From a virus (taxonomy: Duplodnaviria > Caudoviricetes), in the IMG/VR virus record IMGVR_UViG_3300032053_013883, positions 1,326 through 65,325 of that record: a stretch of 64,000 nucleotides of DNA; one strand, written 5' to 3'. The notes beneath the pieces are model-generated. The model ran no database searches, was not told the origin of the DNA, and worked only from the letters and a program-made list of their open reading frames with translations. Shown one piece after another: positions 63,458 through 63,538 of the stretch; the stretch's first letter is position 1, and every line of letters begins with the position of its first letter. Position numbers and translations under genes: made by a program.

Positions 63458-63538
63458 TTATAGGTTAAACAAACATTGATAAAATTGAGTTTGCTTAAAT
63501 TTAGGAGGGCTACGAGATCTAATCTAGAAATGTGTCAT
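63458..63538 (-). promoter_or_regulatory. Leader peptide/translational attenuator: MTHF*IRSRSPPKFKQTQFYQCLFNL
   Basis: TAG at 63524-63526; RSPP; final TAA overlaps the SD of the next gene; anti-SD hairpin. Confidence 0.75.

Follow-up and report, generated by a model that had tools for sequence, protein, structure and literature searches.

Genomic context of the leader

The element described here is a short leader open reading frame (ORF), interrupted by an in-frame TAG codon, near the end of a 64,000-nucleotide stretch of viral DNA (Duplodnaviria; Caudoviricetes); this stretch, hereafter the window, covers positions 1,326 to 65,325 of the IMG/VR record IMGVR_UViG_3300032053_013883. The leader is followed on the same strand by three genes that code for an all-helical protein (p126, whose gene is the presumed target of regulation), an HD/HDIG-like protein and a PTH2-family peptidyl-tRNA hydrolase-like protein (Table 1). 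The window takes up the final 64 kb of a viral contig of 65,325 bp, and since CheckV rates that contig as 15% complete, its source appears to be a giant phage.

The leader, on the minus strand, reads MTHF, TAG, IRSRSPP, a further run of residues and TAA, and it is letter for letter the frame given in an earlier note made from the sequence alone. The codons ACA CAT TTC stand between its ATG and the TAG, which we term the gate, and ATT AGA TCT separates the gate from the Arg-Ser-Pro-Pro (RSPP) codons. Beyond these, 14 sense codons lead to the TAA (63460-63458), which falls within the Shine-Dalgarno (SD) sequence of the p126 gene, itself 7 nt before the p126 ATG (63446). The contigs of four DNA runs differ in this region by a 1-nt deletion at 63458 (one run) and an A>G change at 63543 (one contig). 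No RNA run was found to contain this region.

Table 1. Features of the leader, the downstream operon and the neighbouring genes in the window
Feature	Coordinates	Strand	Remarks
Conserved box GGATATATTA	63545..63554	-	Ends 7 nt before leader ATG; aligned in most core-clade leaders
Leader start codon ATG	63536..63538	-	In frame with TAG and RSPP
Gate codon TAG (leader codon 5)	63524..63526	-	TAG in 16/16 core leaders
Arg-Ser-Pro-Pro codons CGT AGC CCT CCT	63503..63514	-	Predicted arrest site
Anti-SD CUCCU inside the two Pro codons	63503..63507	-	Pairs with AGGAG (63458-63454) in the minimum free energy fold
Inner 10-bp hairpin	63465..63498	-	Arms 63498-63489 and 63474-63465; enclosed by the anti-SD:SD helix
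TAAGGAG, SD of p126	63454..63460	-	Overlapped by the TAA of the extended leader
p126, presumed regulated gene, 126 aa	63066..63446	-	All-helical; AlphaFold2 pLDDT 74.5
Second operon gene, HD/HDIG-like protein, 185 aa	62480..63037	-	phrog_14850, E=4e-62
Third operon gene, PTH2-family peptidyl-tRNA hydrolase-like protein, 97 aa	62149..62442	-	PF01981, 28.6 bits (cut-off 23)
Homing-endonuclease remnant with NUMOD3 repeats	63589..64000	+	5'-truncated, divergent; NUMOD3 E=4e-13
Small MazG-like NTP pyrophosphohydrolase candidate	61391-61684	-	Downstream of operon; weak NCBIfam match
HU-like DNA-binding protein	59859-60194	-	Downstream of operon; PF00216, 23.8 bits

A regular expression modelled on the leader (ATG, 2-9 sense codons, TAG, 1-5 sense codons, R-[A/G/S]-P-P), applied to both strands, matches the 64-kb window once, the mean over 20 shuffles being 0.00. 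It likewise has exactly one match in each of four genomes (shuffles 0-0.1); six related loci without p126 give no match, and the leader is confined to loci that have this gene. The leader pattern is beyond chance.

Conservation of the gate and the predicted arrest motif

The earlier note had suggested looking for a Met-x-stop-x-Arg-x-Pro-Pro arrangement upstream of homologous operons, and such a leader lies directly upstream of the p126 relative in 17/17 loci recovered by a scan of metagenomes with the p126 alignment (two of these are identical to the window and three are viral contigs again). Viral loci with a p126 relative keep it in 5/5 cases (three distinct sequences; p126 at about 37% identity). 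These make up a core set of 16 distinct leaders, the window included, with the form M, 2-8 residues, TAG, 1-4 residues, and RAPP, RGPP or RSPP. A further viral scan added ten loci, one of them cut at the contig start, leaving nine examinable; in eight of these distant upstream regions R-[A/G/S]-P-P stands behind a gate. Overall, the gated motif is present in 24 of the 25 distinct upstream regions examined. A leader letter-identical to that of the window occurs in two independent metagenome contigs, L028 and L029.

Several features distinguish this from a conserved nucleotide string. Over the 24 distinct leaders (RAPP 12, RGPP 9, RSPP 3) the Arg of the motif is specified by CGT, CGC, AGG and AGA, i.e. 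by both codon families, and its second residue is limited to Ala, Gly and Ser, drawn from 10 different codons; the entropy at the third codon positions across the motif is 1.41, 1.96, 0.66 and 1.04 bits, and that at first and second positions 0-1.0. In the 16 core leaders the distance from the ATG to the Pro-Pro codons is 33, 36, 39, 42 or 48 nt, always a multiple of three, so that indels in the leaders preserve the reading frame. Compared with one relative, the window has 95.4% DNA identity in the leader (103/108), 76.6% in p126 (292/381) and 64% in the 100 nt further upstream; across relatives the ATG-TAG-RxPP frame is kept at the amino-acid level with a downstream protein that is only 35-44% identical. 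The claim of the earlier note that RxPP is reached only via amber read-through is supported by this conservation of the frame. As judged from the codon pattern, the leader motif is under selection at the peptide level.

A chance open frame in an AT-rich spacer, or the antisense strand of a decayed homing-endonuclease gene, is a conceivable origin insofar as the opposite strand carries a truncated NUMOD3 remnant 50 nt upstream; the leader is, however, conserved in relatives that have no endonuclease at that place, and its expectation in shuffled sequence is 0.00. We regard such an origin as extremely improbable, and on these sequence comparisons it is refuted. An antisense of a decayed GIY-YIG N-terminus was looked for in 63447-63588 with tblastn (four full-length homologues, E<=100) and PF01541, and nothing credible was returned.

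The residues allowed before Pro-Pro coincide with those that support translational arrest. In the available text of PMC12992588, RAPP and RGPP are the most context-independent arrest cores, for which short N-terminal regions suffice and which are resistant to elongation factor P, and RSPP is an arrest-permissive variant that is under-represented in proteomes and had earlier been selected as an arrest sequence. The leader set of Ala, Gly or Ser, with RAPP and RGPP the strongest and RSPP permissive, is hence the experimentally arrest-competent set (PMC12992588).

The earlier note had also drawn attention to the overlap of the terminal TAA with the SD: this is present in the window but it is not conserved, as the frame ends within two codons of Pro-Pro in 6/16 core leaders (with an immediate stop in 5/16). 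The longer tails end anywhere from 11 nt before to 16 nt inside the p126 start, and the region after Pro-Pro is not conserved. Obligatory translational coupling is therefore not a conserved feature. The distance from Pro-Pro to the p126 start codon is 46-56 nt in the 16 core leaders.

Predicted sequestration of the p126 Shine-Dalgarno sequence

The Pro-Pro codons have a second potential role as an anti-SD. The minimum free energy (MFE) fold of 63514-63441 has -13.8 kcal/mol (z = -2.19) and, when each of the 16 core leaders is folded singly, the Pro-Pro codons (CUCC) pair with the p126 SD in all 16 MFE folds. In these, 3-6 of the 7 bases of the SD region are paired with the Pro-Pro region, the contiguous anti-SD:SD helix has 4-10 bp, and an equivalent of the inner hairpin is predicted throughout. 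Helix extension is greater in cognate than in swapped pairs (mean 2.13 vs 1.40, permutation p=0.026). Of eight distant leaders that were also folded, six show direct pairing of the Pro-Pro region with the SD; this pairing is partial in L075 and not clear in L074. By its coordinates the anti-SD starts 17 nt after the first base of TAG.

This pairing could also belong to an element that works at the RNA level only, i.e. an SD-sequestering stem-loop opened by another factor or by temperature, with ATG-x-TAG as a separate mini-ORF and RxPP as a by-product of the anti-SD CCUCCU. Because CCUCC complements GGAGG, Pro-Pro codons follow from the anti-SD in one of the three frames; the first Pro codon is CCT in 21/24 leaders, a constraint at the nucleotide level, and the SD helix is invariant. 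Such an element would not, however, account for an Arg codon that alternates between CGN and AGR, for Ala/Gly/Ser fixed with a free third base (H=1.96 bits), or for an ATG-stop-PP frame held across five length classes. Even L031, the sole leader without the CUCC core (CCC CCT), keeps its Pro-Pro codons; moreover, the gate type co-varies with the tRNA anticodon and the motif shifts to the +1 frame in +1-type leaders (see below). We consider an RNA-only element quite improbable.

Gate codons match suppressor-type tRNAs

In each of the 11 viral loci that have the HD gene, a tRNA(CUA) is encoded on the same strand 0.4-2.5 kb downstream (Rfam 55-64 bits). The leader is followed in one lineage by p126, HD, PTH2 and tRNA(CUA), in this order and with gaps of about 30-50 nt. 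The flanks of nine core loci are too short to judge tRNA linkage. The interval that follows PTH2 in relatives spans 0.4-2 kb and contains one or two tRNA(CUA) genes together with other tRNA-like matches.

In place of TAG, the gates of distant relatives are TAA, TGA, or a +1 step at TGAA or TAGA. In 13/13 genomes or loci where a suppressor-type tRNA was detected the gate codon matches its anticodon: nine TAG/CUA, one TAA/UUA, one TGA/UCA and two TGAA/UUCA, the last with an 8-nt anticodon loop. The TAGA locus, L074, represents the sole gate type without a matched suppressor tRNA. A complete 362-kb phage thus combines a TAA gate with a UUA tRNA 1.1 kb downstream, and in a complete 427-kb phage with a TGA gate the nearest tRNA is UCA. 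A 436-kb phage has two in-frame TAG codons and two Pro-Pro motifs (MKNYYTSFT-TAG-GRHPP-TAG-ARGPP, L077:2130-2201); a tRNA(CUA) of class II is encoded about 0.6 kb upstream of this double-TAG leader. Among the TAG/CUA matches is the cultured Stenotrophomonas phage DLP_5 (NC_042082.1), in which a divergent MK-TAG-VYKPP-TAA (L094:2882-2908) precedes the p126-family gene gp070 and an annotated tRNA-Sup-CTA (L094:3314-3386) lies 8 nt after it; DLP_5 is a possible laboratory model.

The +1-frame motif was found in four distant relatives and in phage NCTB (LT598654.1), where a TGAA-type leader with RGPP in the +1 frame (L095:2898-2950) lies upstream of a p126-family gene. A 298-kb viral contig, G008, encodes a tRNA (L076:1116-1192) with the 8-nt anticodon loop c-t-UUCA-a-t, called by ARAGORN as 'tRNA-?(ttca)' and matched by Rfam at 53.7 bits with an insertion in the loop. 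The leader starts 19 nt after this tRNA, and its RSPP stands in the +1 frame after TGAA, as four-base reading would give. A second tRNA with the same 8-nt UUCA loop, likewise called 'tRNA-?(ttca)', accompanies a TGAA leader in G010 (21493-21563, minus strand), where the +1 frame carries RDPC; a further tRNA of G010, 96 nt long, is called with 'taat'. The codons that precede TGA in the four TGAA-type cases, AAC, GTC, ACC and TAC, cannot re-pair in +1. The UUCA tRNAs with 8-nt loops are, on sequence grounds, candidate natural four-base (UGAA) decoders.

These matches bear on what reads the gate. UAG is recognised only by release factor 1 (RF1), and a leader of this kind might instead sense RF1 activity or basal near-cognate read-through, with no dedicated suppressor tRNA and by a logic like that of prfB: termination at UAG being slow, some ribosomes would read through, arrest at RSPP and open the SD. 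The leader architecture would be identical whichever agent reads the stop, the contig of the window has no tRNA, and NCTB has a gated leader without a tRNA gene. Nevertheless, the suppressor-type tRNAs detected near leaders match the gate in every one of the 13 cases, RF1 sensing would not predict TAA, TGA and four-base gates, and only 15% of the genome of this phage is known. A +1 frameshift of the prfB kind is not seen in the window: RSPP shares frame 0 with the ATG and the TAG, and neither a slippery codon nor an SD precedes the TAG. We hold RF1 sensing to be unlikely.

A second possibility is that TAG is a sense codon throughout the phage (code 15), in which case the leader would be an ordinary uninterrupted arrest peptide. 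In agreement with this, the 89 stop-to-stop ORFs of at least 100 aa in the window end in TAG once, in TAA 62 times and in TGA 26 times, and the relatives carry tRNA(CUA); recoded jumbo phages are moreover known, as the portions consulted of PMC13037316 and bioRxiv 10.1101/2021.08.26.457843 report. However, with table 11 the window and three related contigs are already 90-96% covered by ORFs of at least 100 aa; for the window, coverage is 94%, and reading TAG as sense adds 1.4 points, compared with 1.9 for TGA. Nor is the gate ever a sense codon across all TAG-type leaders. We regard this reading as very improbable for the parts of the genomes seen (about 15% for the window), which is the scope of the assessment, as late-gene recoding could lie elsewhere.

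Other translation-related genes occur in the vicinity. Phage transfer-messenger RNA (tmRNA) genes (RF00023, 51-118 bits) are present in L007, L008, L013, L014, L017 and L031, about 0.7-1.5 kb upstream of the leader or the HD gene, and at 75832-76185 in G006; together with a tRNA-Thr cluster they lie beside the suppressor-tRNA module. The company of tmRNA, a tRNA-Thr cluster and a PTH2-like gene next to a suppressor tRNA looks like a translation-rescue island. In stop-codon-recoded phages, suppressor tRNAs cluster with other translation genes in 'code-change modules', as described in the available parts of two reports (bioRxiv 10.1101/2021.08.26.457843, PMC13037316), and the modules described here similarly place a phage suppressor tRNA among translation genes. 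They differ in that the present contigs show no genome-wide recoding and in that a cis-acting sensor is proposed here, none being described in those parts of the reports. Borges et al. do speculate that phages might respond to suppressor tRNAs (bioRxiv 10.1101/2021.08.26.457843).

A proposed suppression-gated arrest switch

The leader is a real and conserved feature. We think it probable that it constitutes an arrest switch gated by suppression, reporting whether UAG gets decoded. What this proposal builds on directly is the sequence with its conservation and codon pattern, the pairing predicted for it, and suppressor tRNAs that are linked to the leader and co-vary with its gate; from these we infer that ribosomes initiate at the leader ATG, read through, arrest and release the SD, and that the switch has a physiological purpose. 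In the off state, ribosomes would initiate at the leader ATG, reach the TAG at codon 5 and be released. As the anti-SD starts 17 nt past the first base of this codon, outside the terminating ribosome, it would stay paired with AGGAG and p126 would remain off. In the on state, UAG would be decoded, in the relatives by the phage amber suppressor tRNA of the same gene module, and the ribosome would continue for seven codons until it is arrested at Arg-Ser-Pro-Pro, with the first Pro codon in the P site, the second in the A site and peptide-bond formation blocked. The stalled ribosome would cover the anti-SD and the foot of the inner hairpin, thereby freeing the SD, which lies 45 nt downstream of it by the coordinates; the freed SD would then allow repeated initiation on p126 and probably also on the HD-like and PTH2-like genes. 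The ribosome geometry is deduced from the coordinates and established footprints. The central idea of the earlier note, that read-through switches on the operon, fits the conservation of the frame, the identity of the Pro-Pro codons with the predicted anti-SD and the matching suppressor tRNAs of relatives alike. That p126, the HD-like and the PTH2-like genes sit with a suppressor tRNA and tmRNA suggests damage control or feedback coupled to suppression activity; we would guess that the switch serves to express genes of a translation-rescue type in proportion to that activity.

Several observations weigh against this proposal. The window's own motif, RSPP, is only 'partially permissive' in the ApdA/ApdP context, according to the available text of PMC12992588, and the relative L072 has RDPC in place of RxPP. 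In the core clade, no canonical SD precedes the leader ATG. The window has an anti-SD helix of only 5 bp, and RNAalifold on the MAFFT alignment finds only an invariant 4-bp SD helix with 0 compensatory pairs; since an invariant helix cannot show covariation, and no compensatory change was found, support from covariation is modest, and for the inner hairpin, which is misaligned in that alignment, we make no covariation claim. No tRNA gene is present in the 65-kb contig of the window, about 15% of the genome, and where tRNA(CUA) is located in relatives, the window has just 20 nt between the PTH2 gene and the next gene (57 aa); from this interval (62129-62148) the tRNA segment is missing or has moved away. 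Infernal and ARAGORN find no tRNA gene in the complete 257,877-bp genome of NCTB. The +1-type loci L074 and L075 have tRNA-like sequences only at lowered ARAGORN thresholds or with the intron model; these have no Rfam match at E<=0.01, and default tools call no tRNA there. Lastly, the lineages are related, and the locus counts do not equal independent events.

Other control elements were looked for around the leader. The conserved box, GGATATAT(A/T)A (GGATATATWA) in the core clade, has a near-constant distance to the leader ATG; in its window form it is a candidate for either a promoter -10-like element or a ribosome-loading element. As a general phage promoter it was rejected, given 1 occurrence in the window vs 0.83 expected by chance. 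A sigma-70 scan of the window gave no more sites than in shuffles. No terminator-like site lies within 63447-63540, the only two sites found being inside the p126 coding region. The inner hairpin, which is AU-rich and has CCUAUAAGGAG behind it, does not fit the GC-rich hairpin and U tract of the intrinsic terminator in a transcription-attenuation leader.

Operon genes and their neighbours

The p126 protein has no Pfam, PHROG or NCBIfam match and no match to a PDB fold at E<=0.001; its BFVD matches are all to uncharacterised phage proteins, and the ESM Atlas gave no usable match. Its family nevertheless comprises 1146 representatives at E<=0.001 in a wider profile search, as against no relative in a single-protein search of viral contigs and only two, on contigs of about 1 kb, in a word-indexed protein search. 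The p126 alignment has no relative among 185,579 prokaryote species genomes, and core-clade p126 has no tblastn match among GenBank phages, to which the DNA of the window shows, at near or distant similarity, only matches of the endonuclease repeats. The 185-aa protein has weak HD and HDIG matches below the family cut-offs, and its homologues are syntenic in 11 viral loci; PTH2-like homologues also follow p126 in distant relatives.

The endonuclease remnant fills the position of an upstream gene seen in relatives, and the contig ends inside its repeats. The GIY-YIG domain (PF01541) is absent from the contig, and the alignments of four full-length homologues to the remnant begin no earlier than their residues 78-87. 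In the window copy the frame is broken at 63831 by a 1-nt difference within a run of T; an intact 171-aa ORF of the remnant is found in L029 (738-1253, minus strand), and L028 lacks one 52-nt repeat unit.

Relation to known leader and arrest systems

The sensing and the effector halves of the proposed switch each have counterparts among known systems. In prfB, which codes for release factor 2, an early in-frame UGA is bypassed by a +1 frameshift on the slippery CUU U with the help of an internal SD, and the product is the sensed factor itself. The phage leader is similar in that an early in-frame stop would sense how efficiently that stop is read; it differs in that the window leader would use in-frame read-through followed by arrest, and in that its product, p126, is a protein without a named family. 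The trpL and hisL attenuators and leaders of the ermC/ermB type sense the scarcity of a charged sense-codon tRNA, or an antibiotic. In these, as in the proposed switch, a ribosome on a short ORF reports the status of a tRNA or drug and remodels the downstream RNA, whereas on the phage leader the ribosome would get to the effector site when a tRNA that decodes the stop is present. Arrest peptides are known to sense export, small molecules and antibiotics; we know of none for stop-codon reading.

As for the effector half, the named arrest peptides of the RAPP/RGPP type are ApdA, ApdP, ApcA and upstream ORFs (uORFs) of Streptomyces lividans, with SecM having RAGP (PMC7897499, PMC10951233; both as far as the available text goes). 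The phage leader resembles these peptides in its R-[A/G/S]-P-P core, which ends a small uORF co-directional with the regulated gene, in a stall site that overlaps a stem hiding the downstream SD (predicted here in 16/16 core MFE folds), and in the short N-terminal context that would be enough. Unlike them, however, its ORF is interrupted a few codons short of the motif, either by an in-frame stop or by a four-base step, its chain has 12 residues at the predicted arrest and neither an export signal nor a TM segment, and the genes that follow (p126, HD-like and PTH2-like) are not of the Sec/YidC type. Further, its presumed input is stop-codon decoding and not a pulling force on the nascent chain, and the system is located in phages.

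Two other cases come close to the sensing half. In a synthetic design by Liu, Qi, Yanofsky and Arkin (2011; described in part via the review PMC6412442), a TAG was placed in the tna or trp leader, such that an orthogonal suppressor tRNA controls downstream expression. There, as is proposed for the phage leader, downstream expression needs a suppressor tRNA to carry translation past UAG; the synthetic leaders, as far as that account goes, act through Rho-dependent transcription termination, whereas the phage leader occurs naturally, is conserved and, by prediction, would control access to the SD via a RAPP-type stall. By analogy, the synthetic amber-gated tna leaders are the nearest counterpart of the sensing half. 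In mammalian AMD1, read-through ribosomes are arrested by the C-tail at a second stop 384 nt downstream, limiting translation of the same mRNA (PMC13025110, available text); here too ribosomes that pass a stop are arrested by a peptide encoded beyond it, but AMD1 is eukaryotic and, by the same text, opens no downstream cistron and has no dedicated tRNA.

In the full-text literature we found no natural stop-gated arrest leader; this search lay outside the supplementary RAPP/RGPP uORF tables of PMC12992588, which by the available text derive from uninterrupted predicted proteins of bacterial genomes. If the predicted pairing holds, the effector half would be a RAPP-type arrest peptide with SD sequestration, and the stop gate before the motif would be the new element.

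Implications for suppressor-tRNA phages

We further put forward, as a tentative extension that we rate as somewhat less likely than not, that these leaders form a family of decoding-state sensors, whose gate co-evolves with the non-standard decoder of the phage: amber, ochre and opal suppressor tRNAs, and a four-base UUCA tRNA that would read UGAA into +1 in at least two lineages, where, for one of these two, the arrest motif stands in that frame. On this view the gated p126/PTH2 module would act as a feedback loop, which might commit the cell to changed stop-codon reading or contain the damage of read-through. Such leaders would parallel, in nature, the suppressor-tRNA switches that synthetic biology has built, and would be the first natural cis-acting reporters of quadruplet decoding. 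Through the co-variation of gate and anticodon, attention is also drawn to natural tRNAs whose 8-nt loops may allow four-base decoding. Gate, RxPP and anti-SD could serve as compact, portable parts for reporters of suppression efficiency if the switch operates as proposed. In that case, there would be an experimental handle on how suppressor-tRNA phages stage or tolerate stop-codon suppression, and giant phages would monitor the activity of their own suppressor tRNAs via a 12-residue peptide, thereby tuning the expression of translation-related genes.

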